Positions 16,723-32,243 are shown, counted from the stretch's first letter. The stretch: 42,043 nucleotides of DNA from a virus (IMGVR_UViG_3300025572_000014:1-42043), one strand, 5' to 3'. Numbers and translations: made by a program. The notes: a model not told the origin generated them from the letters alone.

Positions 16723-16733
16723 TGCGTATTGAG

Positions 16734-17039: not shown

Positions 17040-17045
17040 GCCACA

Positions 17046-17945: not shown

Positions 17946-17969
17946 GGATTATTGTCACTCCTTATCCGA

Positions 17970-18404
17970 TTAGTTTCCCGTGAACACGCGGCTGGTGACA
18001 AGCACGTCTGCCACTTTCGCACCAGTGTCCACGTTGCCGACAACTTGCATGAATCCGTTCGTGGTGGTGTCCGCATCGAATTGATACGGAGTGTCGCCAA
18101 GGGCATATTTCGTGCCGATGGCCGGTGTCGCACTGCCCTTGTACGGCGCAACGAAAATCGATTTCGGATTGATGTCCACGAAGATCGTCTCGTCCGCGCC
18201 GGGATTCGCGCCCGTCACGATGTCCGAGTCGGACACGCCGAGAACCGTGCCGGACGTGGGATTGCTGGCAGCCACCTTTGCCTTGCCCGTATCCAGCACC
18301 ACAATGTCGCCACGATGAATCGTTTGATTGGCCGCCACCGGGAAACGGCGCAAAATTTGACCGGTTCCGTCCAGAGAACCGCGATAAACCAACCGTCTCG
18401 TCAA
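17970..18404 (-). CDS. Capsid cement/auxiliary protein
   Basis: TIHRGDIVVLDTG...LGVS pattern, between scaffold and capsid, GAAAGGA RBS. Confidence 0.6.
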   Translation of the reverse strand: MTRRLVYRGSLDGTGQILRRFPVAANQTIHRGDIVVLDTGKAKVAASNPTSGTVLGVSDSDIVTGANPGADETIFVDINPKSIFVAPYKGSATPAIGTKYALGDTPYQFDADTTTNGFMQVVGNVDTGAKVADVLVTSRVFTGN

Positions 18405-18410
18405 TTTCTA

Positions 18411-19388
18411 TCATCCTTTCGGTTTGTAATACTTCGCGTACTCCGCCACGCTTTCGAAAATTCCCATCTTGACGGCCGCCTCCGCAGCCGCCAGAGCGTC
18501 CGGCGGAAGATTGACTTTTTGCTTCACTACAGGCGCGCCGCTAGGCGTCGTATCGACTTTCGCCTTCTGGCGCTGCTGCTGTTTGGCAAGGACGCGCTGT
18601 TCGATCTCGCGCTCCATTTCCTTCATGCGCTGACGGCCGCGCTTTGCCATGTACACTTCAGCCAGCGTTTGGCCGGTGCGCTCGGCGATTTCCTCGAATT
18701 CCTCGCGGAAATCCTCGATGTCGGCGAAGAACGGATCTCTTTTCAACTCGGCGATTTCCTGCGCGTATTTGAGCCTGCGGATCTCCGCCCGTTGCCGATC
18801 CAATTCGCGCTGCTGTTGGAGTTGTGCCATGGCGAGTTCCGGCGCGATGCCCTTTTCCTTGGCGATCTTCGCGGCTTCCGCGGCATCGAGTCTCGCTTGC
18901 AAGTCCGCAATGTCGCTTACGCCGACGAGTTTCATCAGTTTTTCGGCAATCGCAGCTTGCTTGCGCAGTTCCGCCATTTGCGCTTGCAGACGCTTGCGCT
19001 CGGCAATCACGGCCTTGGCAATCGGATTGTCGCCCTTGTCCTTCTTGGCATCGGACTTCTCCGCATCGGCATCCGCGCTCTCAGGCTCAGAATCGCTTTC
19101 TGGAGCGTCTTCCGCCTGACCGGTATCTTCCCCTTCGATCGATTCTTCCGCGTCCTCTGCGCCTTCCTGTGCGTCGTCAGCGCCATCCTCAAAGTCGATA
19201 CCTTCGTCATCGATTTCGATGTCGTTCAGAACGTCGTCCGCGTCGAAATCGTCGTCATTGGATCCGGTACCGGCGCCGCTGGCAGGTCCATCGTCAATCT
19301 CGAACGTCTGTCCATCGATGGTGATGGACCGCTCGCCGGCAAACCATTGCAAATCTAACGTCAACGGAAAATGTTTGATCTTGTCCAT
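18411..19388 (-). CDS. Capsid scaffolding protein
   Basis: N-terminal LDLQWFA motif, acidic disordered segment, coiled coil, upstream of the capsid gene. Confidence 0.8.
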   Translation of the reverse strand: MDKIKHFPLTLDLQWFAGERSITIDGQTFEIDDGPASGAGTGSNDDDFDADDVLNDIEIDDEGIDFEDGADDAQEGAEDAEESIEGEDTGQAEDAPESDSEPESADADAEKSDAKKDKGDNPIAKAVIAERKRLQAQMAELRKQAAIAEKLMKLVGVSDIADLQARLDAAEAAKIAKEKGIAPELAMAQLQQQRELDRQRAEIRRLKYAQEIAELKRDPFFADIEDFREEFEEIAERTGQTLAEVYMAKRGRQRMKEMEREIEQRVLAKQQQRQKAKVDTTPSGAPVVKQKVNLPPDALAAAEAAVKMGIFESVAEYAKYYKPKG

Positions 19389-19519
19389 GCAAAGAAAACC
19401 TCCTCGCCCTTTATCGCGGGGCACTCGAAATGCGATTTTTCGTCAGGAACCGATAACCTGGCTTTTTTGGACGGTCTGTGCTGACCGAGAAAGCGGCGCT
19501 CTTGCCCGCGCCGAAGGGC

Positions 19520-19550
19520 AAACAAAAGCACCCTCCGAAAAGGAGAGTGC
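19520..19550 (-). terminator. Intrinsic terminator upstream of the scaffold gene
   Basis: GCACUCUCC-uuuuc-GGAGGGUGC-UUUUGUUU. Confidence 0.65.
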
Positions 19551-19558
19551 GGGAAATA

Positions 19559-19750
19559 TCAAGCGAACCTTTTTCCAACGAAATAGAAGAATCCGTCTTT
19601 GCCTCTGACCACCATCGGCCTTCGGCACTCATCGCATGAATAAATCATCAGTTCTTCGTCCCAAATCTCATTAAGCAAGTCGATGAAATGTTCTGTATCG
19701 CAACAATTAACACGCACATATCTCCCCACCAACTTGCTTTTTGTCATCAC
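19559..19750 (-). CDS. Small Cys-containing hypothetical protein
   Basis: 63-aa ORF with CC and CxxC, translationally coupled to the upstream gene. Confidence 0.5.
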   Translation of the reverse strand: MMTKSKLVGRYVRVNCCDTEHFIDLLNEIWDEELMIYSCDECRRPMVVRGKDGFFYFVGKRFA

Positions 19751-19902
19751 TAACCCTTCTTCCGACGCTTCATCTTGTTAACCGTGGCGTACCCAATCCG
19801 CTCGGCTTCCGCTTTCGGAACGCCGCGCTTCATCTCGGATTTCATGATGTGCTTCGCCATGCGATCCTGCTTCGCCGTGAACCGTCTCCCTGCTCCGGGC
19901 AT
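19750..19902 (-). CDS. Small basic protein, ChaB-like (MPGAGRRFTAKQDRMAKHIMKSEMKRGVPKAEAERIGYATVNKMKRRKKG); absent from the ORF track
   Basis: AAGGAG RBS; KQ.R.A.HI...RG....AER..ATVNK motif. Confidence 0.7.
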   Translation of the reverse strand: MPGAGRRFTAKQDRMAKHIMKSEMKRGVPKAEAERIGYATVNKMKRRKKG

Positions 19903-19908
19903 CGCTTG

Positions 19909-20331
19909 TCACTCCTTCTCCGCGGCCATCGCATTACGCACCAGCTCGCGCAGCTGTTCATCCGACGCGCCGCCGAAGAACCGAATTTGCCGCTCCCTGA
20001 GAAACGCCCTCAGTTCATCGCGGGAAGCCGTCTCAACGTCGAACGGCTTTTCTTCTGCCGCCGCGGGAGCGCTTTGCGGCGGCGGTTCTCGCTCGCCAAC
20101 CGCACTGATCGTCAGCACCTTGTAGCTGTGCGCAATCGGTTGGAGCCAGAGAATGTAAATCTGACCGCATTCCGGGCAAGCCGATTCTGAGAACCACTGC
20201 GCGTGTCCGCCCCAAAGCCGGTCGTTACCAGCGCCGAACGTCACCCGGGCATTTTTCAGCGGCGGCCGGATGTCCTTCGCCGTAAACGTGTGATTGCAGC
20301 AGGTCGTCGTGTTCAAATGCGTAACTGTCAC
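19909..20331 (-). CDS. Zn-binding protein with a small C-terminal helical (HeH/Rho-N-like) domain
   Basis: CC and CPECG motifs; SRDELRAFLRERQIRF...DEQLRELV C-terminus. Confidence 0.55.
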   Translation of the reverse strand: MTVTHLNTTTCCNHTFTAKDIRPPLKNARVTFGAGNDRLWGGHAQWFSESACPECGQIYILWLQPIAHSYKVLTISAVGEREPPPQSAPAAAEEKPFDVETASRDELRAFLRERQIRFFGGASDEQLRELVRNAMAAEKE

Positions 20332-20594
20332 CGTCGATACAACTCCTCCTCAATGTATTCGCGCATGACCAGCGTCGTCGTCCCTTGATAACCGCACGCC
20401 GGGCACGTAGCGATGCGATGCTTGCCCCAGCTTCCTTTCCGACCGTTCCCGCGCAGCATAATCGCCTCGCATCGAGGGCAAATCGGATGATCAGCGTAAA
20501 TTCGCTCGTCGCTGGAGCCAATCAAGGGATGTGCGGCGGCGTGCCGTTTCCAATCATCCAATGTGATCTTCCGCGTCAACACCTCACGCAACAC
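20328..20594 (-). CDS. Zn-ribbon protein
   Basis: CPRC...CPAC, coupled to the portal gene. Confidence 0.6.
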   Translation of the reverse strand: MLREVLTRKITLDDWKRHAAAHPLIGSSDERIYADHPICPRCEAIMLRGNGRKGSWGKHRIATCPACGYQGTTTLVMREYIEEELYRR

Positions 20595-22521
20595 CTCCTA
20601 TCCGCGGCATTCTCGGGCTTCCTGTGCCCGTCAGACCGCCGACAAGAGGATTGGGCATATCAGACATAGGCGCGGCTCCTGTCGGCGCTCCAGCGGCCCC
20701 TGCGGGGCTCATAGCGCCCCCCTGGGAGCGCTGTAATGCTTCCTGAATCATCGCTTGCACCTGGTCCTGCGTCATCGGCGGCTGTTCCTCGATCGGCAGC
20801 CCGATGTACTCTTTCAGCAGTTTCCGCATTTCTTGCGGCGTGAGCAGACCAGCCGATTCTTTGATCACGCTGTAGATGAACGCTTTGTTCTGCGGCAGAC
20901 CGGCGCCAACCGTCACTGTGATGTTCAGCGCAATCTTCTTCTTGATCGGTTCTCGGTTGCCAAACTCATCCGGTTCGCCCATCAGCGGCATGAACTCCGG
21001 CGGCTCCGAACCGGGGAACTCGCGCAAAAACGCCTCCTGATAAGAAGGCGTCGCCGGAATCAGCACCGGAATTTGGAGCATGTCGCTCGGACGGAAGAAA
21101 TCGAACTCGCCCGGCTTTTCGGTCAGCTCGAAGAACTGTTCCTCCGTCCAATGCATCATGCAGAGTTCCAGGCAGTACTCGAACACTTCGGCGAGCGTTT
21201 CTTCGAGCAAAATCTTGCTGTGGTTGATGCCGCTCGTCGCACTTTGCTGGAGCGCCAGCGCTTCCGTCGCCGTATCAACGCCCGCTTGTTTTACACCCAC
21301 CTGCTGGTCCCCAAAGCGTGTCACGATCTGGCGTTCGATGCCGAGCGCCTGGTCGCGACGCTGGAAGATGTATGCTTCCATCCCCGGCGGCTCCAGCCAC
21401 TTCATGCCGTTCACGTCGTTGGACGGAATCGCAAGACCCGCCTCGTTCGTCAACTTCTCCGGGTCGATGCCGCTGTTCACGTCAACAATGCGCTGCGGAT
21501 TCCCCGTGAGCCGCGCGTTGATGCGAATCTGGTCGTCCAAATCGTCAATCAGGTCCTGCGTCTTGATCAGCAATTCCGCCGTCGATTTGCCCCAAACCGT
21601 GCCTTCACGGTACATATCCGGCGTCGCGAAGTACGGATACCGCGCGTCCGGGAAGATGCGAACGCCTTCTTCTTCCTCCTCCTGCTTCGTATCCCGCAGA
21701 ATCACGCCGCATCCGCTCATTTCGACGAGTCGGAGCCGCAATTCGCCGTCCTTCGTTCGATACCGCGTGAAGACGAACATATGCAGGTACGAATCGCGGC
21801 TGATTGCGTCCACCTTGCCTTCTTCTTCGCCAAAGATAAGCTGCGCCTCCGCCGGATGATAGCCCGGCTCGATGGCGTTGACCAGCTCCTCAGGATAATG
21901 CTCCCGGGCGTAATTCAGCGACCTGTTGATGTACTCGATCACGAACCGGCCCTCTTGGGTGCGATAGATGTCTGTCACCGTCGGGTCAAAAAACACATAG
22001 GCCGGATTGCACGGTTCTATGCACGGCAGACCAAAGCCGTCCAGCTTGTCCGGGTCAAACAGCACGCGGAAGATGCCTGTGCCGAACTTCTTCCGGCGCC
22101 GCTCGTGGATGTCCAGTTTGCGGCGCATCTTGTTTTGCTCCTTGACAAACTCCATCACCATGCGCGCGCGTTCTGCCCAAGGCATGTCGGACGGGCCGCG
22201 CGGCTTGGCCTCAATGGCAATGTTTTGCTCGACCAGGTACGCGACCTGACCCTCCACGTTCGGATTGACGATGTTCGTATTGCTGGCCGGATCCGTGTCG
22301 CTCTCCGGCGGATTCGCGTCGCCTTCCCAATAGAGATCCACGCGCTCCCATTTGTCGAACAGGCCGCGGTTTTCTTTATCGAGCCACGCCGAGCGGAACC
22401 ATTCCAGGAACTTGTCTGCTTCCTTGCATTGCTCTTCCGTCATCACATCGACGCGGCGCTTATTCGTGCGGTCGTTCGTGAGAAACGGGAATTCTTCTTC
22501 AAACGGGTCGAAACTGGCCAC
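20584..22521 (-). CDS. Portal protein (P22/podovirus-like)
   Basis: ~645 aa after terL; TNIVNPNVEGQVA, GTGIFRV, LIKTQDLID and TATEALALQ motifs; GAAAGGAG RBS before GTG 22521. Confidence 0.88.
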   Translation of the reverse strand: MASFDPFEEEFPFLTNDRTNKRRVDVMTEEQCKEADKFLEWFRSAWLDKENRGLFDKWERVDLYWEGDANPPESDTDPASNTNIVNPNVEGQVAYLVEQNIAIEAKPRGPSDMPWAERARMVMEFVKEQNKMRRKLDIHERRRKKFGTGIFRVLFDPDKLDGFGLPCIEPCNPAYVFFDPTVTDIYRTQEGRFVIEYINRSLNYAREHYPEELVNAIEPGYHPAEAQLIFGEEEGKVDAISRDSYLHMFVFTRYRTKDGELRLRLVEMSGCGVILRDTKQEEEEEGVRIFPDARYPYFATPDMYREGTVWGKSTAELLIKTQDLIDDLDDQIRINARLTGNPQRIVDVNSGIDPEKLTNEAGLAIPSNDVNGMKWLEPPGMEAYIFQRRDQALGIERQIVTRFGDQQVGVKQAGVDTATEALALQQSATSGINHSKILLEETLAEVFEYCLELCMMHWTEEQFFELTEKPGEFDFFRPSDMLQIPVLIPATPSYQEAFLREFPGSEPPEFMPLMGEPDEFGNREPIKKKIALNITVTVGAGLPQNKAFIYSVIKESAGLLTPQEMRKLLKEYIGLPIEEQPPMTQDQVQAMIQEALQRSQGGAMSPAGAAGAPTGAAPMSDMPNPLVGGLTGTGSPRMPRIGGVA

Positions 22522-22540
22522 CGAATCACTCCTTTCGCGC

Positions 22541-22585
22541 AAAATAAAAAAGCCCTGACAACGGCGCTAGGCCATCATTAGGGCT
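22541..22585 (-). terminator. Intrinsic terminator between the Com-like gene and the portal
   Basis: AGCCCU-AAUGAUGGC-cuagc-GCCGUUGUC-AGGGCU-UUUUUAUUUU. Confidence 0.75.
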
Positions 22586-22600
22586 TCGGGAGCCTCTAAG

Positions 22601-22705
22601 CTATTCCGTTTTGTTTAGCGTCTTGCACCGCGGGCAGATGATCTCCGCGCAGCCTCGGATGCGTCCGAGAAGTTTATTGCACTTGCGGCAGCGGAAGTCG
22701 ATCAT
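22601..22705 (-). CDS. Com-family zinc-finger regulator (MIDFRCRKCNKLLGRIRGCAEIICPRCKTLNKTE); absent from the ORF track
   Basis: AGGAGG RBS; RCxxCxKLL...EIxCPRCKTLN is the Mu Com-like signature. Confidence 0.8.
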   Translation of the reverse strand: MIDFRCRKCNKLLGRIRGCAEIICPRCKTLNKTE

Positions 22706-22731
22706 GACGCCGTTCCTCCTAGGGAATCTAT

Positions 22732-23025
22732 TTACTCCTCCAGCTCCTCCAGTCTGCCATTGTCGCCCTTTGGCTTCACCGGCTCATACAGCCCGCGCTT
22801 CGTTTTAAAATCCTCGTACCGCGTCTCGTACGTCCGCAGCGGATTGCGAAGGCTCGGTTTTACGCGCTTGACTTTGATCGTCTCCTCGTCCGTAGAGAAT
22901 GGGGGCGGGATGCTCTTCGCTCTTTTGTCCGTCACTAAAAACGCGCCAAACATCGCCCCAACAGCGAAGATGAGAAGTGCCGAAATCACTTCCGCAGCAT
23001 ATTCCATCCATTCATGGCTTTCCAT
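22732..23025 (-). CDS. Small membrane protein
   Basis: N-terminal TM helix, AAGGGGG RBS. Confidence 0.55.
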   Translation of the reverse strand: MESHEWMEYAAEVISALLIFAVGAMFGAFLVTDKRAKSIPPPFSTDEETIKVKRVKPSLRNPLRTYETRYEDFKTKRGLYEPVKPKGDNGRLEELEE

Positions 23026-23203
23026 TCCCCACGTCCCCCTTCGCAAAACTGGCGATAAATCCGCACGCCTCGCAGCGGTAGTGACTCATCCGCGTCGGCC
23101 GCATCCCGTCCGCTTTCCAATGCGGATAGCCCATGTCCGTGCGCGACTGACGCCATGAAGTTCCGCCGCACATGGGGCATTTCATTTTCCCCGGTTCCAT
23201 CAC
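23012..23203 (-). CDS. Small Zn-ribbon protein
   Basis: CPMCG...CEACG, overlaps the terL stop. Confidence 0.55.
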   Translation of the reverse strand: MMEPGKMKCPMCGGTSWRQSRTDMGYPHWKADGMRPTRMSHYRCEACGFIASFAKGDVGNGKP

Positions 23204-24720
23204 AACACCTTCCTGATCTCGTATTTACTGAGGCCCAAATCCTCCAGCTCCGTCGGCGTGTAAAACTCACCTAGAAGCCGCCGTTTTTCCTTCGGCACAA
23301 ACCGATATTGCAGACGATTCAGCGCCTGACTCATCGCGTCTACCTGGTCGTCATGCGCGCCTTTCGGAAACGCCGCGCACTCGTCGATGAATTCCTCGAC
23401 CCACGGTTTGCCGCGCGGCAGATAGACGTTTCCCGCCTCGATCTCCGGCGCCACCGCAGACACGCGAGCAACCTTTCCACCTTCGGGCTGTACGGGCACG
23501 AGTCCGCCGACTTTGGTCCGCAGCATCTGTATGACCGCCGGGCCGTTAGCTTTGTCCTCGATGAGCTTCAGCTTCGCTTGCGGCCATTTTGCGGTCATCC
23601 GCACAATCGCATCCATCGTCTGCACGATGTCCATGCGGTCGCGCACCTGGTCGACGAGGTACTTATCCGCGCCGATGCGGCCCCATACCTGCCCCACCAC
23701 GTAGTCGCTTCCGTCGCTGTCTTTGAACGCGCAGTCCCAGCTTTGAATTATCTCGTCAAACCGCATGAAGCGCGGATCGATGTCGTAAAACCGCCACCAT
23801 TCGCGCTTTAACATCGCGCCTTCTGCGGCGCTCGGACGTTGTTGGTAGAGCGCGTTAAAGAAGTATGTCCCGACGGCTCGCCGCGTCTCCTCCAGCCGCT
23901 TTGCATCAAATCCGCCCTCCGGCCAGAGCGCTTCGCCCGGTTTTCGTCCGAGCATGTCGCCATCCTCTGCCAGCGCCGGAAAATTGATCACCGTCCAGCG
24001 CTCGCCTTCGTGCGTGCCCTCGGCGATCTCCTCGCGCTCCTTTTGCAGCAACCGCCCGATCAAATCATCCTCGTGCCAGCGCGTCGCAACGATGATGATG
24101 CGGCCGTCGCTCGTCAGCCGCGTAAACAACGTCGATTGGTACCACTCGTAAATCTTCTCGCGAATCGTCTCGCTCGCGGCTTCTTCGGCGTTTTTCAAAT
24201 AGTCGTCGATGATCGCGATTCTTGCGCCGCGCCCGGTGATCGGACCACCGATACCGGCGGCATTCAGCCCGCCGCGATGCCCGGCGATGCCCCAGCTCTC
24301 TGCGCTATGGTTGTCTGGGTCGATCTCGACGCCCGGAAACACCTCCGGCCGCGCCGCTAACGTGTCGCGAGCAATCCGCGAAAAATCGCGCGCAAGGTCA
24401 ATCGAATACGACGCAAGGATGATCTCGTCGTCCGGATTGCGCCCCAGGTGCCACGCAGGAAACTTTTTAGATACGCGCTCGCTTTTGCCATGCCGCGGCG
24501 GCATCGTCACGATCAGGCGCTTGATTTTGCCTTCGCTGACATCTTGAAGTGCGCGATCCAGCACGTCCAGATGCTTGCCTGGCGTATCCCGGAACCCACT
24601 GTCATAGTCCATGAAGTAGGTGAACGACTGATACGCCAGCGCCTTGCGCACGTCCTCCAGCGATGGCAGGCGGAGAGCGGGGGCGCCACTCTTGCGCTTA
24701 GCCTTCTTCGTCGCGCTCAT
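23200..24720 (-). CDS. terL: Terminase large subunit
   Basis: MPPRHGKS Walker A, IIDDY Walker B, TRWHEDD, SWDCA nuclease motif, IEDKANG, HDDQVDA. Confidence 0.95.
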   Translation of the reverse strand: MSATKKAKRKSGAPALRLPSLEDVRKALAYQSFTYFMDYDSGFRDTPGKHLDVLDRALQDVSEGKIKRLIVTMPPRHGKSERVSKKFPAWHLGRNPDDEIILASYSIDLARDFSRIARDTLAARPEVFPGVEIDPDNHSAESWGIAGHRGGLNAAGIGGPITGRGARIAIIDDYLKNAEEAASETIREKIYEWYQSTLFTRLTSDGRIIIVATRWHEDDLIGRLLQKEREEIAEGTHEGERWTVINFPALAEDGDMLGRKPGEALWPEGGFDAKRLEETRRAVGTYFFNALYQQRPSAAEGAMLKREWWRFYDIDPRFMRFDEIIQSWDCAFKDSDGSDYVVGQVWGRIGADKYLVDQVRDRMDIVQTMDAIVRMTAKWPQAKLKLIEDKANGPAVIQMLRTKVGGLVPVQPEGGKVARVSAVAPEIEAGNVYLPRGKPWVEEFIDECAAFPKGAHDDQVDAMSQALNRLQYRFVPKEKRRLLGEFYTPTELEDLGLSKYEIRKVL

Positions 24721-25376
24721 GGCTTGGCTTCCTTCCGCTTCTTTAGCCACGTTTTCCGACGCAACAGACGGCCGCATTCCGCGCCTGGTTCAAGCCACAA
24801 CTTCCACGGCAGCAATATCTTCCGCCTTTCCAGCGGATCGGCGTTCATCACCAACCGGCACAGCGTGGCGTTGATACGGTTTCTATCGCCACAAAAGATG
24901 ATTTCCGGGTTCAGATATAGCGGACGTTCCTCCACGACGCGCCCGTGCCGCTTCAATTGTTGCGCGTCCACAAACTCATAAATAATGCCCTTATCCAGCA
25001 ACGATGTTACCAGCGCCCGCGCCTGCCGCACGGAATACTTGGATGACTCAGCCAATGCGGAAATGGTCATATATCGGCCTTCCGCATCCACGACGGCGTT
25101 AGAGTGCATTTCTGTTCGACCCATCACAGACATCAAAAAAGCGAGTTCCGACGTGGTAAGATACTCGCTTTCGATGATGTAATTTAGGTTTTCGGCGATC
25201 ACCTGCACGAAACCGGCGGGATTGCGCGGCGTCACGTGGACGATCTTCACGTTTTGATCAACGGCCTTTTTCAGTTCCCGCGCCAGCGTGCCGACATCTA
25301 TTTCATTGTCAAAATCGCGTCGCCTGGCGTTCATCTCTGCGGCCCAAAAAGCCTGTTCTAGCGCGGCTCTACCCAC
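24717..25376 (-). CDS. RepL-like winged-helix replication/maintenance protein inserted between terS and terL
   Basis: FVQVIAENL...LT..E..FL...HTH...L.DKGII...LYLNPEIIFCG pattern of Firmicute plasmid RepL-type proteins; preceded by 22-bp iterons. Confidence 0.65.
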   Translation of the reverse strand: MGRAALEQAFWAAEMNARRRDFDNEIDVGTLARELKKAVDQNVKIVHVTPRNPAGFVQVIAENLNYIIESEYLTTSELAFLMSVMGRTEMHSNAVVDAEGRYMTISALAESSKYSVRQARALVTSLLDKGIIYEFVDAQQLKRHGRVVEERPLYLNPEIIFCGDRNRINATLCRLVMNADPLERRKILLPWKLWLEPGAECGRLLRRKTWLKKRKEAKP

Positions 25377-25396
25377 GTTCTCACCACCTTCGGCAG

Positions 25397-25438
25397 GTAG
25401 GAAATTTTTCGCCTACATGTAGGAAATTTTTCGCCTAC
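25397..25438. repeat. Two 20-bp direct repeats with 22-bp period (GTAGGAAATTTTTCGCCTAC), iteron/operator-like
   Basis: Exact copies at 25397-25416 and 25419-25438, each with GTAGG/CCTAC self-complementary ends, just upstream of the RepL-like gene. Confidence 0.85.
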
Positions 25439-25549
25439 CTTAAATCGACCACAAACCCAAGCGCAACAAGGGATTTCGGCGTTTTGGGTAGTGGTCTCCT
25501 ATCTCACTCTGTATATATACCTGCGACGCTATGAAGACATCTGTACAAA

Positions 25550-26074
25550 CTAGCTCGTTTTTTCTTCGTTTTTCTCTGCGCGTGACAAAAGCTGCTCCAA
25601 CTGCACCAACTCTTCCGGCGACAGGCTGCGCAGATCGTGCGTAATGGTCTGTTTGACCCCGCCGCTGTGCTCGATCTCGTGCTTGTCGCGCCAATTCTGC
25701 GGCTGTCTGTTTTTCAACCACGCCATCGCGGCGCCGGTGTCAGGTGCAACCTCTTTTACGACGCGCTTTGTGATGGTCTCTGTGCCGTCTTTTCCGGGCT
25801 CAACAGTGATTTCCTCGTACTGGTACCCTTTGGCTCGCTTGTAGAGGCTGGCGGCCACCTCGGCGTCTGCAATCTCTTTGCCCCTTTTTAGGGCGTCGCA
25901 AAACTCCGAATATGTATCCTTCCATCGGTAAATCGTTGCTACGTCTACACCAAGAAACTCTGCAAGTTGCGCATCAGTTGCTCCAAGAAGGCAAAACTTA
26001 TATGCTAAATCGGCATATTCCGGCTTATACTTGCTCGGCCGCCCGCCAATCCCTTTCCTGCTTTTCTTCTCCAC
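25550..26074 (-). CDS. terS: Terminase small subunit
   Basis: GRPSKY, HTH (GATDAQLAEFLGVDVATIYRWK), SLYKRAKGY and PDTGAAMAWLKNRQP motifs; GAGGGGG RBS before GTG 26074. Confidence 0.9.
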   Translation of the reverse strand: MEKKSRKGIGGRPSKYKPEYADLAYKFCLLGATDAQLAEFLGVDVATIYRWKDTYSEFCDALKRGKEIADAEVAASLYKRAKGYQYEEITVEPGKDGTETITKRVVKEVAPDTGAAMAWLKNRQPQNWRDKHEIEHSGGVKQTITHDLRSLSPEELVQLEQLLSRAEKNEEKTS

Positions 26075-26196
26075 ATCATCCGCCCCCTCGCGCGCGATTT
26101 CACCTAATGGCACTTCGTAAGACAAAAAACCGCACATTTTATCGCTTCGCAAAATTTGTTCACAAATTCGTAACATTTTGTTCGTATTATGTTCGT

Positions 26197-26225
26197 TTGA
26201 CAGTCGTAAAACGATGTGGTATGAT
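26197..26225 (+). promoter_or_regulatory. Near-consensus sigA promoter of the plus-strand operon
   Basis: TTGACA-17 nt-TATGAT with a TG extension and an AT-rich upstream region. Confidence 0.85.
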
Positions 26226-26237
26226 GAAGCCAACAAA

Positions 26238-26267
26238 GGCCGACAGCCGACGACAAGGGCGGCGGGC
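26238..26267 (+). repeat. Leader element A, copy 1 (GGCCGACAGCCGACGACAAGGGCGGCGGGC)
   Basis: Identical to 26680-26709; directly precedes an RBS. Confidence 0.9.
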
Positions 26268-26283
26268 GGAAAGGATGGTCAAA

Positions 26284-26619
26284 ATGAAGAAAATCAAAAT
26301 CAATTATTACGCCGGGGAATCGAATTACCTGGGTCACGGCCAGCCCATCGCGGTTGACTACCTCATCTCCGACCCCCTCGATTGGGACGATCTCCGGGGA
26401 GACGAATTCGACGGCCCGATATTCGGGGACGACACCGCCGCCGATTTGATCCGGGTTGGCGGCAAATATCACCTGTACGCGGAAATGGAAAATCCCACCC
26501 GGAGCGAGGAAGACGAGACCGCAACTTTTGACAAGCTAAAAGCAGAAATCATCGAGCTTGCGAAAAAGGTTGGCATTGATCCGAGCCGACTTGTATTCCC
26601 GTATGACGACCCCGCCTGA
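26284..26619 (+). CDS. Acidic hypothetical protein (MKKIKINYYAGESNYLGHG...)
   Basis: GGAAAGGA RBS; its TGA stop is the UGA of hammerhead 1. Confidence 0.75.
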   Translation: MKKIKINYYAGESNYLGHGQPIAVDYLISDPLDWDDLRGDEFDGPIFGDDTAADLIRVGGKYHLYAEMENPTRSEEDETATFDKLKAEIIELAKKVGIDPSRLVFPYDDPA

Positions 26620-26665
26620 CGAGTCCGCTGGTCACGGACGAAACCGGGTTTATCCCGGTCGCGGG
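26611..26665 (+). ncRNA. Hammerhead ribozyme 1 (type I), predicted cleavage after C26660
   Basis: CCCGC | CUGACGA | GUCCG-cugguca-CGGAC | GAAA | CCGGG-uuuau-CCCGG | UC | GCGGG. Complete core, three perfect stems and a GUC triplet. Confidence 0.95.
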
Positions 26666-26679
26666 AGACCGCACATCAT

Positions 26680-26709
26680 GGCCGACAGCCGACGACAAGG
26701 GCGGCGGGC
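26680..26709 (+). repeat. Leader element A, copy 2
   Basis: 30/30 identity with 26238-26267; between hammerhead 1 and the next RBS. Confidence 0.9.
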
Positions 26710-26727
26710 TTGAAAGGAGAAGGAATC

Positions 26728-26991
26728 ATGGTAAAGATTGCGATCAAGGTGCAAAACAGCAAGGTTTACGGCGAAGACGAAAAGGGAACCTGGGAGGACT
26801 TGCTGGAAGAAATGGCGCTGAAAGTCGAAGGGTGGGCCGGCTACGACGTTGACGAGTCCAGCTACATCGGCGGAGCACGGCACATGCGGGGAACACTAAA
26901 CGATGAAAACTTTAAACCGATCTACACCTTCTACGCGGTTGTAACGGCTGAATGGGGCGAGGCCGAGGTCGGCAGGCTTCGGGGAGAGTGA
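26728..26991 (+). CDS. Hypothetical protein (MVKIAIKVQNSK...)
   Basis: AAAGGAGAAGGA RBS, ATG 26728. Confidence 0.7.
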   Translation: MVKIAIKVQNSKVYGEDEKGTWEDLLEEMALKVEGWAGYDVDESSYIGGARHMRGTLNDENFKPIYTFYAVVTAEWGEAEVGRLRGE

Positions 26992-27001
26992 CTTGACCGC
27001 C
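26969..27001 (+). repeat. Element B, copy 1 (TCGGCAGGCTTCGGGGAGAGTGACTTGACCGCC)
   Basis: 32/33 identical to 28089-28121; contains the stop of 26728-26991. Confidence 0.85.
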
Positions 27002-27043
27002 CCGGCCCCACAAAACCACCCGAAAGGACGTTTCGATATTTAG

Positions 27044-27109
27044 CCCGCCTGACGAGGCCCGGAGCGGACCGGGCCGAAACCTAGCCGCAGCTGCGGCGAT
27101 GGTCGCGGG
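27044..27109 (+). ncRNA. Hammerhead ribozyme 2 (type I), predicted cleavage after C27104
   Basis: CCCGC | CUGACGA | GGCCCGG-agcgga-CCGGGCC | GAAA | CC-ua-GCCGC-agcu-GCGGC-gau-GG | UC | GCGGG. Same core and stem I as HH1, with different stems II and III that still pair. Confidence 0.92.
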
Positions 27110-27143
27110 AAGCCCGCAACATAAAATCCAAGGAGGAATTATC

Positions 27144-27512
27144 ATGAACATCATCAATCTCACCCCCCACGCGATAAACGTTGTAAAGGATGACGGCACG
27201 ATCATCGCGTCGTTCCCGCCGTCAGGGGCGGTGGCGCGAGTGGACACGATCACGGATGACCTCGGACCTCTGAACGTGCACCCGGACATTCCGGTCGTCG
27301 TCCAGAGCTTCGGCGCGGTGAAGGGTCTGCCGGACCCGCAGCCGGACACGATCTATCTCGTGTCGATGGTTGTCGGGCAGGCGGCCGGACAAGATCGGGA
27401 CGACCTGCTCGGACCGGACACTTCGCCCGCCGGAGCGGTGCGTGATGCGGACGGCCGGATTATCGGAACCCGGCGGTTGGTGTACTACGGACGGGTAAAC
27501 CCGCGCCCTTGA
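27144..27512 (+). CDS. Conserved phage protein with an N-terminal NLTPH motif (possible ring-nuclease-like)
   Basis: AAGGAGG RBS; INLTPH...PSG.VARV...GLPDPQPDTIYLVS...R.DLL.P...RD..GRIIG. Function is inferred only. Confidence 0.75.
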   Translation: MNIINLTPHAINVVKDDGTIIASFPPSGAVARVDTITDDLGPLNVHPDIPVVVQSFGAVKGLPDPQPDTIYLVSMVVGQAAGQDRDDLLGPDTSPAGAVRDADGRIIGTRRLVYYGRVNPRP

Positions 27513-27627
27513 AACTGCGGGAGCGGGCAACCCGCAACGCTGTGCAATGCCGGTGATCCATATTGCGGTTGAAAGTGATACACATTCTAAAGCCACCATC
27601 CCAAACATTTGTTAAGGAGGAATCCAA

Positions 27628-28044
27628 ATGGGAAAATACGTTGTTGAGACGAACGGGTTGATTATGCGTCTGCCAAAGGTGCTCGAAGTGGAATGCTCCA
27701 CTTCTGAGGACCCGATCAAGAAGGCGCGGCAAACTCTCGCCGATATGTGCGTTCGTGAGAATGCGTCTTTCGCGGTTGGTCGGGCCGGTGCTTACCGTCC
27801 GACTCCCCCGGGTACCGTCTACCTGCCGCCGGATGTGGCGGAGGCGCTGAAATTCGTTCTTGCCGGGAACGAGAAAATGTCCGAAAAACTCGTTCTCCGA
27901 ATCGTTATGAACCCTGAGGCGGAAAAACGCATGGGGTGGGACGTGCTTCATCGCTGGGTGAAAAGCGACATCGGAAACATCATTCTCCTCATCGACGCTA
28001 TCCGGGACGGTTTCGATGTGGAGGTACGCGGAGCGTACCAGTGA
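27628..28044 (+). CDS. Hypothetical protein
   Basis: AAGGAGG RBS, 138 aa. Confidence 0.75.
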   Translation: MGKYVVETNGLIMRLPKVLEVECSTSEDPIKKARQTLADMCVRENASFAVGRAGAYRPTPPGTVYLPPDVAEALKFVLAGNEKMSEKLVLRIVMNPEAEKRMGWDVLHRWVKSDIGNIILLIDAIRDGFDVEVRGAYQ

Positions 28045-28067
28045 AAAACTGTCGGCGCTGAACGAAT

Positions 28068-28130
28068 GAAGCCCGCCGATCTCGCACATCGGCAGGCTTC
28101 GGGGAGAGTGACTCGACCGCCGCTCTCCCC
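28068..28130 (+). repeat. Double hairpin containing element B, copy 2
   Basis: GAAGCCcGCCGAU-cucgcac-AUCGGCaGGCUUC followed by GGGGAGAGUG-acucgaccgc-CGCUCUCCCC. Confidence 0.7.
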
Positions 28131-28161
28131 TCCATCATATCACATTTGGAGGGATTTGCAC

Positions 28162-28626
28162 ATGGAAAACATCAGCGTCGTCGCCGTGAAGCAGGTTCGG
28201 GAGCGGACGCTCCCCTACAACGTTCGTCCCATTCGCCAGCCCGAGGATGCTTATTCGATCCTTTGCGAAGCGATGGCACTGCACGAGGAAGCCATCGAAA
28301 AGTTTGGTGTTCTGCTCCTGGACACCAAATGCAACGTGAATGCCATCCAGATCATTTCCGCGGGGACCTTGGACCAAACGATCGTCCATCCGCGTTCCGT
28401 CTTCCTTGCGGCCGTTCTCGCGAATGCTCGGCAAATGATCCTGTTTCACAACCACCCGAGCGGAGACCCGAAAGCAAGCCGGGCAGACGTGGACATCACG
28501 CTCCGTCTCATCGACGCAAGCCGCATCATGGGCATTCCGATCATTGACCATATCATCGTAGGTGACGGAACATTTTACAGCATGCGAGCGCACGGCGACA
28601 TGCCTGCGCCGGAAGGGGCGGCCTAA
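28162..28626 (+). CDS. radC: RadC-like JAB/MPN domain protein
   Basis: EKFGVLLLD...GTLDQTIVHPR.VF...HNHPSGDPKAS.AD...IIDHIIVG; GGAGGG RBS; stand-alone JAB domain. Confidence 0.92.
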   Translation: MENISVVAVKQVRERTLPYNVRPIRQPEDAYSILCEAMALHEEAIEKFGVLLLDTKCNVNAIQIISAGTLDQTIVHPRSVFLAAVLANARQMILFHNHPSGDPKASRADVDITLRLIDASRIMGIPIIDHIIVGDGTFYSMRAHGDMPAPEGAA

Positions 28627-28724
28627 TGGACGTTGAATCATGGTTCCTGTTTACGCTGGCGCTGTTCGTAGTCCTCGGCGGGCTGACGCTCATTGCGTGG
28701 TTCGCCGAGATGCTGGAGGATTAA
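28626..28724 (+). CDS. 32-aa single-TM peptide (MDVESWFLFTLALFVVLGGLTLIAWFAEMLED); absent from the ORF track
   Basis: TAATG coupling to the radC stop, GAAGGGG RBS, hydrophobic core; its stop abuts twister-sister 1. Confidence 0.65.
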   Translation: MDVESWFLFTLALFVVLGGLTLIAWFAEMLED

Positions 28725-28797
28725 CGAAGGCTAGGCCCAGTCCCGTGAAAGCCGGGACCGGCGGGGAGCACCCCCGCCGCGGCGCTCAACCGATCGT
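28725..28797 (+). ncRNA. Twister-sister ribozyme 1 (three-way junction), predicted cleavage C28787/A28788
   Basis: GG-CUAG-GCC-CA-GUCCCG-ugaaagc-CGGGAC-C-GGCGGGG-agcac-CCCCGCC-GC-GGC-GCUCA-A-CC. Closely matches the twister-sister architecture as I recall it (GCWAG...GCUCA internal loop, UG.AAGC loop). Confidence 0.85.
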
Positions 28798-28852
28798 ACC
28801 TATGAGGAATGCGGCCTGCGGCCGTAAAAATCAATCAAAAGGGTGATGTTGG

Positions 28853-29278
28853 ATGACGTTGTTTCGGAAGAAGTTTCCCTCCTTTCTGGAGGGACTGCAT
28901 GAGCTCATGCAGGTTTGCTATTCTGCTCGTCAGTCTCTCAGCCACAACCTCGGACGCTCGCCTGCGTCTGAGGAAGAAGCGGTTTCCGCGCTGGCGATCA
29001 ACGCAGTATGCGATCGCCCGACCGGAAACGGCGTAGATTGGGCGCGGTGCAGCTTGTCCGTCACCGCCACGGACGTTCTTTACCGTACCACGGGCGGACT
29101 TGAATTCGGGTGGAGTCCGCTTCTCGGCGGCGGCCAGACAGATATTTTTGATGGTTCGTTCGAATTTCTCATCATCTATCCGGGGTGTGTGCCCGCTCCG
29201 CCGCACTCCACCTTGCGCAAGAGTTGCGCAGAGGCCGGTTGGGAGGTGGTGGAACCGTTGGAACAGTCCGAGGGCTAG
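28853..29278 (+). CDS. Hypothetical protein
   Basis: AAGGGTG RBS; its TAG stop lies in the GCUAG of twister-sister 2. Confidence 0.65.
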   Translation: MTLFRKKFPSFLEGLHELMQVCYSARQSLSHNLGRSPASEEEAVSALAINAVCDRPTGNGVDWARCSLSVTATDVLYRTTGGLEFGWSPLLGGGQTDIFDGSFEFLIIYPGCVPAPPHSTLRKSCAEAGWEVVEPLEQSEG

Positions 29279-29331
29279 GGACAAGGCCGTGAAGCCCGGC
29301 GCGGGGCCGCGGCCCCTTCCGCTCAACCTCG
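29269..29331 (+). ncRNA. Twister-sister ribozyme 2 (variant), predicted cleavage C29324/A29325
   Basis: CGAGG | GCUAG | GGA | CAAG | GCCG-ugaagcc-CGGC | GC | GGGGCC-gc-GGCCCC | U | UCC | GCUCAA | CCUCG. P2 covaries with TS1 (GCC/GGC to GGA/UCC); the loop deviates. Confidence 0.7.
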
Positions 29332-29361
29332 AAAGAGGAAATGAATAAGGAGTTGATTCCA

Positions 29362-29769
29362 ATGAAAATTGGGCTGATTCGCGGCCGGCATCCGCTGCCG
29401 GTCGAAAAATGCCTGATCGAGCAGGCAGAGGTGCCGTTCGATCAGGCGCATCGCATGGCATATGACGCCATGCAGAAGCTGCTATCGGAACATGCCGGAG
29501 ATGTCGATCTTTACATTACCGGCCTTAAGCGCGCCACGTTGGGCGCCGTCGCAGGCTGGATCAATCACTACGACCGCATCGAGCCAGCGGAATACAGTTC
29601 CGCCGCTCCCGAGTCGCGCACGCTGCGGATCTGGGAGTATAACGCGGTAACGGGGCAGTACGAATCCGTCATTGCATTCCGGTCCGGGGCAATCATGACG
29701 GAAGTCCTTTACTGTCAGGGCTCATACCAGTTCGTCTGGGGTACATATGCCCTCATGGAAGGGACGTGA
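29362..29769 (+). CDS. Hypothetical phage protein with GRH and LYITGL motifs
   Basis: AAGGAG RBS; MKIGLIRGRHPLPV...VDLYITGL...LRIWEYN..TGQY. Confidence 0.75.
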   Translation: MKIGLIRGRHPLPVEKCLIEQAEVPFDQAHRMAYDAMQKLLSEHAGDVDLYITGLKRATLGAVAGWINHYDRIEPAEYSSAAPESRTLRIWEYNAVTGQYESVIAFRSGAIMTEVLYCQGSYQFVWGTYALMEGT

Positions 29770-29825
29770 GGCCTCTCCCATGTTTTTCACAAGTAAGGAC
29801 ATTATTCGCGGAGGAGGAATTAGAC

Positions 29826-30263
29826 ATGGCTAAAACCCACACCGGCTTTCGCATACGGCCCGAAGTGCTTGAACAGTTGGACGCCCGAGGGCCTCGATCC
29901 ACGATTGCGGATCGCGATCTGGAACGCCTGTATGCGCTCTATGCCCGGGCGCTCCAGCGCGTCGTGCCGTCGTTCAGCATCGACGAACTGTGCCTCATCG
30001 TCGATGCCCTGAATGGCACCCTGCACGACGTTCGCAGCGGCGTGCGGTTCTGGATCGGCGTCGAGGATTCCATCGAACTCGACGGACTCGCCCAAAAATG
30101 GAACGTCGACGCTCTGGCACTCATGGAGAAACTGCGCCCGCTCGACGAACTGACCTGCATGGCGATTGTGGACGCCGCAGAGCGGTTCTGGTGCGGCGAG
30201 AAGTACCGCAACATGGACGTGCATGAAGGTGTGCGCGATGCGTTCGGAATTAGGAATACTTGA
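29826..30263 (+). CDS. Putative regulator: N-terminal ribbon-helix-helix-like segment plus helical domain
   Basis: GGAGGAGG RBS; HTGFRIRPEVLEQLDARGPRSTIADRDLERL resembles Arc/MetJ strand-helix-helix. Confidence 0.6.
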   Translation: MAKTHTGFRIRPEVLEQLDARGPRSTIADRDLERLYALYARALQRVVPSFSIDELCLIVDALNGTLHDVRSGVRFWIGVEDSIELDGLAQKWNVDALALMEKLRPLDELTCMAIVDAAERFWCGEKYRNMDVHEGVRDAFGIRNT

Positions 30264-31149
30264 CGCGAAACTGGAGGCGTTAGAGCGGCGCATATGGGAA
30301 GATGTGCGCCGCGATTGGGATTACGTGGATAAAATCCACGTCCAGCAGGAAGACTTCGACGCGCTGAAACGGGTGCGCCTCTCGCCGGAGGAACTATCTC
30401 CGGTGCTGGAGGCGCTGTTTCGGCCGGAGAAACGCATGTTTCTGGATGACATCGCGCTCATCGTAGCGGCGGATGAGGATGTGCGCCGGATTATCCATCT
30501 GAAATACCTGGACCCGGAAAACGCCGTCCTTTCCGCCTTCGACGGCGACGGCAGGTTGTTCGGACGCATCGCCGTCCACGTCGAGGGTGATGATGTGCAG
30601 GTGAAACCGGACAGCGTGGCGCCGTTCGGGCTTCGATACGTGGACCGGTTCGCGCGGGAGTATTTGGCGAAGTACGAGCCGACGCCGGACATGTACCAAG
30701 GCGGCCGGGTCACGAATGCCGCCGTCCGGAAACTCATGGCGCAGCTCCATGTGCGGCTTTCCGAGCGGATGCTGCCGCGGCTTGAAGAATTTTTTTTCTT
30801 TGTGCTCGCGGCGATCCATCGGGTTCTGAACACGCCGGTCATCGTGAAGCCGGCGCCGTACTCGGAAGACGCCTCGCCGCAGGAAGTCGAGGCATTGAAT
30901 CAGCGGCGGCCGGCGGCTCTCGGACCGCGTGCGCCTTATCCACGGTCGCTCCAGCGCATCATCTATGCGGGCCGTCCAGCGCCGCAGAAACGAGACGGTC
31001 CGCGGGTGTACGTCCAGCACGTCGAGTCCTGGAAGGTGCGCGGACATTGGCGCGTGTATCGAACGGGAAAGCGCGTGTGGGTACGGCCGCACGTAAAGGG
31101 GCGGAAGTCCGAGAAGTTTCGGCCGCTCGGCGCTGACTATATTTTGTGA
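30238..31149 (+). CDS. Hypothetical protein with a basic C-terminal VRGHWR...WVRPHVKG motif
   Basis: GAAGGTG RBS before ATG 30238. The motif recurs in phage proteins of unknown function. Confidence 0.7.
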   Translation: MRSELGILDAKLEALERRIWEDVRRDWDYVDKIHVQQEDFDALKRVRLSPEELSPVLEALFRPEKRMFLDDIALIVAADEDVRRIIHLKYLDPENAVLSAFDGDGRLFGRIAVHVEGDDVQVKPDSVAPFGLRYVDRFAREYLAKYEPTPDMYQGGRVTNAAVRKLMAQLHVRLSERMLPRLEEFFFFVLAAIHRVLNTPVIVKPAPYSEDASPQEVEALNQRRPAALGPRAPYPRSLQRIIYAGRPAPQKRDGPRVYVQHVESWKVRGHWRVYRTGKRVWVRPHVKGRKSEKFRPLGADYIL

Positions 31150-31216
31150 AAGCGAGGGGTGGACGTGCCGCCGCAACGCGGACGTAATGAGGAGTAATGG
31201 AAAACGAACCTGCATC

Positions 31217-31723
31217 CTACACCAGGAACAGGTTCGTTTCTTTTTCGCGCCGGATCTTCGCCCGCGCCCGCTCGACATATTCCTGCACCGCGCCCTTTGC
31301 TAAGTGCAGCTCCCGCGCGATCTCCCCGAAACTCATCCCGTCAACCACATGCATTACGAAACATTGGCGCTCGCGCATAGTCAGATCGCGCATCGCCTCT
31401 TCGATACGAAACCGATCATCGTCTGTAAGCCCCGCTGTGATCGTCTCGCGCTCGATAGACCAGCCGTAAGGGGAATGATACCGGTCCAGCCATTCGGGCG
31501 CCCACGGGCGCTCGTAGCGCCTCTCAACGCCTTTCAGCGATTTAGGATTGCGCCCTGTCTCCAGCCACTGAAGCGCGAACTCCACGTCCCCGAGCATGCT
31601 GCTGATGATTTCGCGGTCTGCCGCATCCTTTGTTTTCTCTCTCAACTTTTGCAGTCCGCGACGCGCAGCCCGATATTGTGGTATGAGATCGACCACTGAT
31701 TCGTTCCAATGCCCGACAGCCAT
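31217..31723 (-). CDS. Late-gene activator, sigma-70 region 4 (PBSX Xpf-like)
   Basis: IISSMLGDVEFALQWLETGRNP and LTMRERQCFVMH...SFGEIARELHL..G.VQ.YVERARAKI; last gene of the early operon. Confidence 0.85.
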   Translation of the reverse strand: MAVGHWNESVVDLIPQYRAARRGLQKLREKTKDAADREIISSMLGDVEFALQWLETGRNPKSLKGVERRYERPWAPEWLDRYHSPYGWSIERETITAGLTDDDRFRIEEAMRDLTMRERQCFVMHVVDGMSFGEIARELHLAKGAVQEYVERARAKIRREKETNLFLV

Positions 31724-31777
31724 TCCCCGACCCCTCCCCTGTGGTATAATAGGGTTAGGGAGAACATATTTTCTTTG

Positions 31778-31811
31778 CCCCGCCGACCAGCTGAGCCGGC
31801 GGGGATTTTTT
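31778..31811 (+). terminator. Intrinsic terminator (plus-strand U-tract)
   Basis: CCCCGCCG/CGGCGGGG stem followed by ATTTTTT. Confidence 0.7.
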
Positions 31812-31838
31812 ATCTATGCAATACTTCTTCCAGTGGTG

Positions 31839-32243
31839 TCACTCCACCGTCACTCCGATTTCGCGGAGGATGTTGCGGGCACGTTGTCCATAATCACCAA
31901 GCACCATTGAAACGCCGTTTATTTTGTTCATGCTTGCATAAAACCGCAACCCCTCGATCAGCTTTTGCCGCTCTTCTCTCAACCTCCGGTTCTCCTTCTC
32001 CAACTCGCACAACTCCGTCAAATGCGCGTTATGCGCGGCGCGTTCTTCGGCGTATTCTTGCTGGATGCGGTCAATTTCATCTAGCATCACGCCAACCGCT
32101 TCAAATACCGTAAATTGCGGAAATGAGTCCATTTTCCCTTCGTGCCATTCTCGTATCTCAGCGATCTTCTTTTTCCGATTACTCATCTTTCTATCTTCTC
32201 GAATCTCCGCGATCTTTTGCGCGGTGTCAGACATGGGCATCAA
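31839..32243 (-). CDS. Coiled-coil hypothetical protein
   Basis: GGAGG RBS; part of a tightly coupled early operon. Confidence 0.65.
   Translation of the reverse strand: MMPMSDTAQKIAEIREDRKMSNRKKKIAEIREWHEGKMDSFPQFTVFEAVGVMLDEIDRIQQEYAEERAAHNAHLTELCELEKENRRLREERQKLIEGLRFYASMNKINGVSMVLGDYGQRARNILREIGVTVE

Follow-up and report, generated by a model that had tools for sequence, protein, structure and literature searches.

The two hammerhead ribozymes that flank a small gene in the phage cassette described here most plausibly release linear, gene-sized mRNAs whose 5′ hairpins would make the cut final and shield the new ends from RNase J, and the DNA encoding these ribozymes would also serve as a joint at which genes are swapped. 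This reading, held with somewhat better than even confidence, draws on the structure and covariation of the hammerheads, the arrangement of the genes between them, and the reassortment of both among related phages. The two motifs are half of a four-ribozyme punctuation of the cassette and not a stand-alone bracket around one gene.

The 42,043-base contig analyzed (the window) is a temperate tailed phage, with integrase, lysis, tail, head, portal, terminase, replication, and recombination genes on the minus strand. A plus-strand block of 5 kb, visible as a reversal of skew, is located between the gene for the terminase small subunit (25550-26236) and that for a sigma-70-region-4 regulator (31217-31723), and consists of one promoter, about 10 small genes on the same strand, and four ribozyme motifs distributed among the genes. 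This cassette is accessory, promoter-led, and antisense to the main phage gene order. Elsewhere in the window, a 219-aa gene (24717-25376, minus strand) that lacks family matches is inserted between the terminase subunits. Named homologues of one cassette protein belong to Clostridia, Moorella, and Thermincola, and most records with the same hammerhead pattern are of Clostridia and Cohnella, so that sequence relationships point to a host that is probably a member of the Bacillota; it is probably also thermophilic. No close cultured phage was found, the best terminase match being 47.5%. The features referred to throughout are the following.

26179-26225, plus strand: TGTTCG in tandem at an 11-nt period, then a sigma-70-type promoter, the cassette promoter
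26238-26267, plus strand: leader repeat D4, copy 1 of an identical 30-nt repeat, after the promoter
26275-26619, plus strand: ORF1, which terminates at the UGA within the HH1 catalytic core
26611-26672, plus strand: HH1, type I hammerhead, predicted cut after 26660
26661-27104, plus strand: predicted 444-nt linear product carrying ORF2, by arithmetic from the two predicted cut sites
26680-26709, plus strand: leader repeat D4, copy 2 of the identical 30-nt repeat, after the HH1 cut, with an SD next (26714-24)
26728-26991, plus strand: ORF2, SD-led, 87-aa alpha/beta protein whose last residues are read into the truncated D2
26969-27001, plus strand: motif D2 in truncated form (the full motif is at about 28064-28160)
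27044-27117, plus strand: HH2, type I hammerhead, predicted cut after 27104
27144-27512, plus strand: ORF3, homologue of Crn4-like ring nucleases (E 1.3e-12 to Crn4b), the first gene past the HH2 cut
28064-28160, plus strand: motif D2, three hairpins, one of them over the SD; often the source of the upstream stop codon
28162-28626, plus strand: RadC-like JAB domain gene (PF04002, E 7e-40)
28723-28798, plus strand: twister-sister motif TS1 (40.4 bits, gathering threshold 34)
29267-29335, plus strand: probable second twister-sister TS2 (26.9 bits, below gathering; E 0.00029 in a 141-nt search)
29826-30263, plus strand: conserved late cassette gene for a predicted ribbon-helix-helix protein with an AcrIE10 fold, from a structural model

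The promoter (TTGACA-17-TG-TATGAT, 26197-26225) matches the consensus at 11 of 12 positions, and the TGTTCG tandem (26179-26195, plus strand) abuts its -35 box. Both are retained in relatives. The tandem is a possible operator for the ribbon-helix-helix protein encoded at 29826-30263; alternatively, it may be a LexA-like half-site. The D4 repeat marks the cassette family, although its fold by itself is unremarkable (z -0.84), and the many D4 pattern matches in unrelated contexts were left out of the family counts. Comparison of 61 cassette records, 4 of which lack D4 (L393 was left out, as its length and matches equal those of the window), revealed that relatives share the promoter region and the 30-nt leader yet differ in gene content and order, and that genes move between the two D4 slots, one behind the promoter and one behind the HH1 cut. 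ORF1, which occupies the first slot in the window, has no Pfam, PHROG, or NCBIfam match.

The first-pass annotation had described two hammerheads with a common core and stem I and different stems II and III, and their coordinates, cores, and stems were borne out; it did not include the pseudoknots, the hairpins at the 5′ ends of the products, or the two twister-sisters of the cassette. In HH1, stem I is formed by CCCGC (26611-15) and GCGGG (26661-65), CUGACGA and GAAA occupy 26616-22 and 26640-43, stem II has 5 bp (26623-39) and a 7-nt loop, stem III has 6 bp, and UC precedes the cut at 26659-60. The corresponding elements of HH2 are CCCGC (27044-48) and GCGGG (27105-09), CUGACGA (27049-55), GAAA (27076-79), a stem II of 7 bp (27056-75), a stem III of 3 bp, a 2x3 internal loop, and 5 bp, and UC at 27103-04. 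The core positions C3, U4, G5, A6, N7, G8, A9, G12, A13, A14, the A15-U16 pair, and H17 are unchanged in both motifs by published criteria (PMC3088659), the stems next to the core are paired (5/5/6 bp in HH1 and 5/7/3(+5) bp in HH2), and both have type I topology, with stem I open and stems II and III closed. They are the only type I matches on either strand of the window, and the scanner that finds them returned no match in 1.38 Mb of order-2 shuffled sequence. HH1 matched the Rfam model Hammerhead_1 (RF00163) at 22.6 bits (E 0.055), below the gathering threshold of 34, and HH2 had no Rfam hammerhead match even in a 151-nt search. A gathering-threshold scan of 14 related loci that hold many hammerheads returned no hammerhead and one twister-sister, indicating that Rfam is insensitive to this hammerhead subfamily.

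Several variants and remnants of these motifs were observed. After ORF3, the plus-strand sequence at 27500-27538 reads CCCGC...GAAAC..GCGGGA, followed by a GCGGG/CCCGC hairpin, and resembles a hammerhead minus its core and stem II; in L080, only a hammerhead tail is left (4927-4950). Cassette-family hammerheads can contain an extra base (L082, L408, L371, L374, and L381) or an extra 17-nt hairpin (L114, L409, and L411) between A9 and stem II. In L008, L044, L045/L318, and L342, type I hammerheads form arrays of 5-10, with one for each gene, and some such arrays exhibit compensatory changes in stem I, the pseudoknot, and the product hairpin inside one contig. Twister-sister variants that lack P3, have a 7-nt loop, and score below the Rfam threshold occur at 29267-29335 of the window and in L080, L366, L380, and L386. 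The first of these, TS2, has compensatory variants in relatives, which were spotted by eye, and its UAG is the stop codon of the ORF at 28853-29278.

The tail that follows each cut appears to have two pairing partners, the first of which is loop II of the ribozyme. A predicted pseudoknot joins UGGUC of HH1 loop II to its own tail at 26667-71 (5 possible pairs), and GCGG of HH2 loop II to 27114-17 (4 possible pairs). The hammerhead set used to examine such pairings comprised 295 distinct, related sequences gathered through CCGC- or CCAC-type stems, so that the counts are not independent events. At least four Watson-Crick pairs between loop II and tail were present in 126 of 248 distinct cognate combinations, compared with 53.7 ± 6.0 when tails were permuted, and a 3-bp pairing was present in 216 of 248 (143.1 ± 6.4 permuted). 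The triplets covary: loop GGC is accompanied by tail GCC in 103 of 121 cases, GGU by ACC in 42 of 49, and GAC by GUC in 16 of 32. Since stems II and III differ between HH1 and HH2 and are nevertheless paired, and the loop II-tail pseudoknot covaries, the proposal of selection on ribozyme structure, made from the window sequence at the outset, gains support.

The second partner of the tail is the stem I strand that becomes the 5′ end of the product. The HH1 product is predicted to begin with the flush hairpin GCGG-GAGA-CCGC (26661-72), and the HH2 product with GCGGG-AAG-CCCGC (27105-17). A flush 5′ hairpin of at least four Watson-Crick pairs was found in 130 of 242 distinct tails, compared with 19.9 ± 4.1 after shuffling, and was missing from the remaining 112 tails of the subfamily. 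When tails were swapped between ribozymes, the expectation was 92.3 ± 5.1, and 132 of 245 were observed. In 17/17 close-family copies, the 5′-most base of the product is also where the hairpin begins. Its 3′ arm tracks stem I, in that CCGC occurs in 100 of 187 tails that start with GCGG and in 0 of 45 that start with GUGG, while 25 of these 45 contain CCAC. The hairpin is retained in 12 of 18 tails with a GUC pseudoknot strand, from which its 3′ arm cannot derive. As a general rule for phage hammerheads, the 5′ hairpin was rejected: when 130 type I tails were sampled with no restriction on stem I, 19 contained it, compared with 14.5 ± 3.2 after shuffling (15 of 122 once GCGG and GUGG starts were removed). 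The 5′ hairpin is a trait of this hammerhead subfamily.

Nearest-neighbor folding of the precursor with its tail, which does not model pseudoknots, gave stem I a probability of 0.0 in both contexts, the tail hairpin winning. Because the hairpin beats stem I at equilibrium in these pseudoknot-free calculations, cutting must rely on folding order or on the pseudoknot, and by the same models cleavage may be partial. At 55 °C, the hairpin is predicted with a probability of 0.99; its 4-5 bp may not suffice to block RNase J in a host that is probably thermophilic.

Ribozymes of this kind are embedded in the coding layout of the cassettes. In 81 of 232 hammerheads, an SD-led ORF terminates at the UGA of the core, compared with 13 and 11 for the two other frames. 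Of the same 232, 194 are followed by the start of an SD-led ORF no more than 200 nt past the cut, at a median distance of 44 nt. In the close family, the upstream stop codon lies inside the element in 11 of 16 hammerheads, 6 of 10 twister-sisters, and 10 of 19 D2 copies.

The same arrangement could serve a different end. The cuts may mainly destabilize or cap cassette output in a manner similar to glmS, by admitting RNase J at the 5′-OH and leaving bare 3′ ends, so that a toxic or transient burst is limited and the hairpin is a mere competing fold that sets the fraction cut. RNase J1 degrades 5′-OH ribozyme products in Bacillus subtilis, products of this kind being its substrates (PMC3997798, PMC10810187); anti-CRISPR proteins made in excess have been reported to be possibly harmful to the element (PMC13530269); the hairpin is predicted to compete with stem I in the precursor; and the core UGA is often a stop codon, so that a terminating ribosome could gate folding. 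A mere competitor, however, need not start at the first base of the product, as the hairpin does in all 17 copies, nor covary with stem I, and the two D4 copies, one following the promoter and one following the HH1 cut, give the impression that cutting mimics a new start of transcription. Limitation of output is considered unlikely on these grounds, while retaining an appreciable chance of being correct.

The ribozymes might also be near-neutral passengers, repeats spread by recombination in a cassette that tolerates cuts, with expression much the same without them. Many relatives contain ORF2 homologues without an adjoining hammerhead, the L080 cassette has no called hammerhead, and decayed remnants exist (the tail in L080 and 27500-27538 of the window). 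Passengers would not be expected to accumulate compensatory changes in the stems, the pseudoknot, and the product hairpin, nor would two unrelated ribozyme classes be expected to occupy the same slot, and this explanation is regarded as improbable.

Exchange of genes at the ribozyme DNA forms the second part of the favored reading, that of gene-sized linear mRNAs. The 17 distinct hammerheads of the family represent 16 combinations of 5′ flank, stem II, stem III, and tail. Four-gamete patterns were found for the 5′ flank versus stem II and for the 5′ flank versus stem III, twice each, whereas comparisons of stem II, stem III, and tail with one another yielded no such pattern in these 17 copies, with the qualification that allele classes were assigned by motif and that metagenome assemblies can be chimeric at repeats. 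The patterns involving the flank require crossovers in the invariant stem I/core block. Crossovers located upstream of the cut site favor DNA recombination over reverse transcription of an excised RNA. Among the phage genes are those for an Erf annealing protein, a Gam-like protein, SSB, and RusA, and no reverse transcriptase or RNA ligase appeared in the PHROG matches of the 65 proteins scanned, many of which have no match. The repeated ribozyme DNA likely doubles as a crossover point for gene swaps between related phages, as far as can be judged from sequence comparison.

ORF2 is the single SD-led ORF (26728-26991) within the 444 nt between the predicted cuts, and the description of the hammerheads as bracketing exactly one gene holds in this respect. 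It is rare, with 10 representatives at E ≤ 0.001. Its structural model is confident (pLDDT 93) and has no clear fold match (best Z 5.9); searches of Pfam, PHROG, and NCBIfam gave no match, atlas matches were under 0.8, and a match to the PqqD family was obtained at E 0.0056. Homologues occur in five distinct relatives (L080, L409, L371, L374, and L375), in none of them beside an intact hammerhead; three lie directly behind the promoter, and four are followed by a full D2. ORF2 homologues stop at the intact D2 stop codon, and since ORF2 of the window ends inside a truncated D2, the bracket in the window looks like a recent rearrangement. Motif D2, a further copy of which is located at 5256-5357 in L080, has two-sided changes in 5 of 21 predicted pairs over 12 sequences and no Rfam match at E ≤ 10. 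Its predicted pairing marks it as a structured RNA, not described before, that takes the position otherwise held by ribozymes; it was also considered as a ribozyme, for which there was no evidence.

Hammerhead cleavage leaves a 5′-OH and a 2′,3′-cyclic phosphate, ends that are chemically ligatable. If both predicted sites cut, a monocistronic 444-nt RNA with ORF2 would be excised, and the first-pass annotation had considered that it might become circular. In that scenario, the product would be ligated by the hammerhead rebuilt at its junction, or by a host RtcB-type ligase, to give a stable circular mRNA. The rebuilt ribozyme, consisting of the HH2 body and the HH1 tail, is structurally fair: stem I would have all 5 of its pairs and the pseudoknot 4, compared with 5 and 3 in the mirror junction, an arrangement without use in a circle. 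The hammerhead of L082 even exhibits a circle-junction layout, combining an HH2-type flank, loop, and stem III with an HH1-type tail and leader, yet this chimera stands before the homologue of ORF1 and not of ORF2.

Circle junctions (downstream body with upstream tail) and mirror junctions were compared in 109 distinct neighboring pairs. Identical stem I sequences are the norm in the family, being present in 64 of the 109 pairs of a set that was found through such stems. The circle junction was better in 16 pairs and worse in 22 with respect to stem I, and better in 34 and worse in 48 with respect to the pseudoknot; competent junctions numbered 92 for the circle and 91 for the mirror, in a test that is blind to selection for a universal stem I and uses related pairs. 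In the 26 pairs with differing stem I, the figures were 12 and 10. Over the whole set, the ribozyme's own tail beat the circle partner by 27 to 3. Pseudoknot-free folding of the 444-mer predicted the 5′ hairpin with a probability of 0.998 and the circle stem I with 0.0, ORF2 is bracketed by hammerheads in 0 of 5 distinct relatives, the PHROG matches mentioned above included neither ligase nor reverse transcriptase, and Perreault et al. looked for circles in such arrays and detected none (PMC3088659). A circular RNA is thus not supported, there being no junction bias, a 5′ end predicted in a hairpin, and no bracket in the relatives; it is very improbable, and the linear mechanism is better supported. 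The circle-versus-mirror comparison can be reused to dismiss or support circle claims for other hammerhead pairs.

Contigs from one RNA run (X2), which possibly hold DNA, contain pieces that end at hammerheads (26303-26613, 26670-27019, and 27114-27492). The two downstream pieces begin 9 nt past each predicted cut, and 7 of the 8 longest X2 pieces listed over 12100-32000 fall in the cassette; a DNA run (X1) bridges both hammerheads. Runs X1-X4 were placed along the window, and X4-X12 had small shares. No joint from 27104 to 26661 was seen in the X2 contigs, which do not cover HH2 and cannot show the absence of a circle. As a sign of cleavage, the contig ends were set aside, because a single study falls short even of a weak hint, the search that retrieved the run used this stretch itself, and assembly branching where repeats are shared can produce the same ends.

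The neighboring genes suggest what the cassette carries. Residues T7, H9, and R100 of ORF3 correspond to T13, H15, and R112 of Crn4a. These residues are reported to be conserved in Crn4, with the histidine and arginine essential, and phage copies of Crn4 have been proposed as anti-CRISPRs, unconfirmed according to the authors (PMC12830947). ORF3 belongs to a large unnamed viral cluster and is, on the strength of its sequence match, a candidate anti-type III CRISPR protein. The modeled product of 29826-30263 matches AcrIE10 with Z 10.2 (rmsd 2.9 over 112 aligned residues; the next match has Z 5.5), at 18% identity and a weak sequence E of 0.09. AcrIE10 is a ribbon-helix-helix autorepressor and anti-CRISPR (PMC13530269), and the modeled protein is a candidate autorepressor. 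Its gene is kept in 6 distinct relatives, and its family, of at least 87 proteins, extends ribbon-helix-helix candidates of the Acr/Aca type to Bacillota phages. Taken together, the Crn4-like, AcrIE10-fold, and RadC-like JAB genes suggest an anti-defence locus. Like acr-aca operons, the cassette combines a strong promoter and small genes that vary with a conserved protein predicted to be of the ribbon-helix-helix type and to have the AcrIE10 fold, and with a Crn4 homologue that retains the catalytic residues; unlike them, its genes are punctuated by ribozymes, and it is known from sequence and models. The resemblance to the AcrIE10 operon is one of fold, and the promoter repeats are direct here, whereas AcrIE10 binds an inverted repeat (PMC13530269).

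In the mechanism favored here, stem I and the loop II-tail pseudoknot would form as the polymerase passes, and the RNA would be cut after C26660 and C27104, as the known hammerhead mechanism implies. The tail would then swap partners and displace the ribozyme half of stem I, a step predicted by folding and supported by covariation. The 444-nt ORF2 mRNA and the Crn4-like mRNA would each begin with a hairpin of 12-13 bases, a short leader, and their own SD. The flush hairpin would make the cut final and shield the 5′-OH end from RNase J; that a short flush hairpin blocks this enzyme is expected from general knowledge. Each gene would acquire a context-free leader, independent of the upstream sequence as with RiboJ, so that genes become swappable at the repeated DNA. 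Reassortment would proceed by DNA recombination, probably mediated by the phage Erf protein, at the 30-nt leader repeat and within invariant blocks of 10-12 nt, and ORF2, to judge from two of its neighbors, is likely one of the interchangeable cargoes of an anti-defence locus.

A bolder extension, offered tentatively and as one that we would sooner doubt than accept, is that the ribozymes are the standard joints of an integron-like array of anti-immunity genes, each supplying a stop codon, a cut, a 5′ hairpin cap, and homology for trade. If this were true, a joint module of 60-70 nt would serve all four roles, ribozyme-flanked orphan genes such as ORF2 would offer a guilt-by-association route to anti-defence proteins, and the cuts could shorten the time for which type III CRISPR sees long phage transcripts.

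Retrozymes and viroid-like circles likewise contain two hammerheads of the same orientation with a common stem I, which release a unit with ligatable ends. The 444-nt unit differs from them in being neither repeated nor mobile, in being flanked by divergent ribozymes, and in encoding a protein from its own SD. It is also not conserved as a unit (bracketed in none of the five relatives), exhibits no circle-junction bias, and has ends that are not ligation-competent in the pseudoknot-free fold.

The bracketing itself is ordinary, as clustered ribozymes around variable phage genes are already published. Clustered hammerheads that flank single genes or short blocks were described in prophages by Perreault et al. 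(2011; PMC3088659), and tandem prophage hammerheads cleave in vitro and, when cloned, in Escherichia coli (PMC3088659). The present cassette has several same-strand ribozymes between short phage genes, and the flanked genes vary. It resembles the published arrays in placing several hammerheads between small, non-constant genes of temperate phages and in the stem I-loop II pseudoknot, and differs from them in containing twister-sisters in the same cassette and a cargo that includes anti-defence candidates (PMC3088659). For those arrays, processing to gene-length mRNA was proposed, and spliced or circular products were sought and none detected; the main text of that paper lacks the words recombination, RNase, and stop codon, and no description of a flush 5′ hairpin on the product, a stop codon in the core, or a recombination role was found in it (PMC3088659). 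No printed account of the product hairpin, the stop codon in the core, or a role in recombination was found in a search of main texts, largely open-access ones. The reason for phage ribozymes between accessory genes was called unresolved in a 2019 review (PMC6765202), and this locus, with two native hammerheads, a breakable hairpin, and a Crn4-like enzyme downstream, turns that question into short tests.

Two further systems involve a ribozyme in the leader of an mRNA. Like the glmS ribozyme, the hammerheads would self-cleave in a Bacillota mRNA leader and leave a downstream RNA with a 5′-OH; the glmS ribozyme is ligand-gated and triggers decay, whereas no ligand site is evident here and the new end is predicted to be base-paired (PMC3997798, PMC10810187). 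The closer parallel is with RiboJ insulators, in which a hammerhead removes the upstream context and leaves a fixed leader with a hairpin before the SD, and in which the uncleaved RNA has been modeled as less stable (PMC7536230). RiboJ is engineered, and its 23-nt hairpin is an added part, while the hairpin described here is natural and derives from the stem I and pseudoknot strands (PMC7536230). The cassette hammerheads would work like RiboJ without being members of that group.
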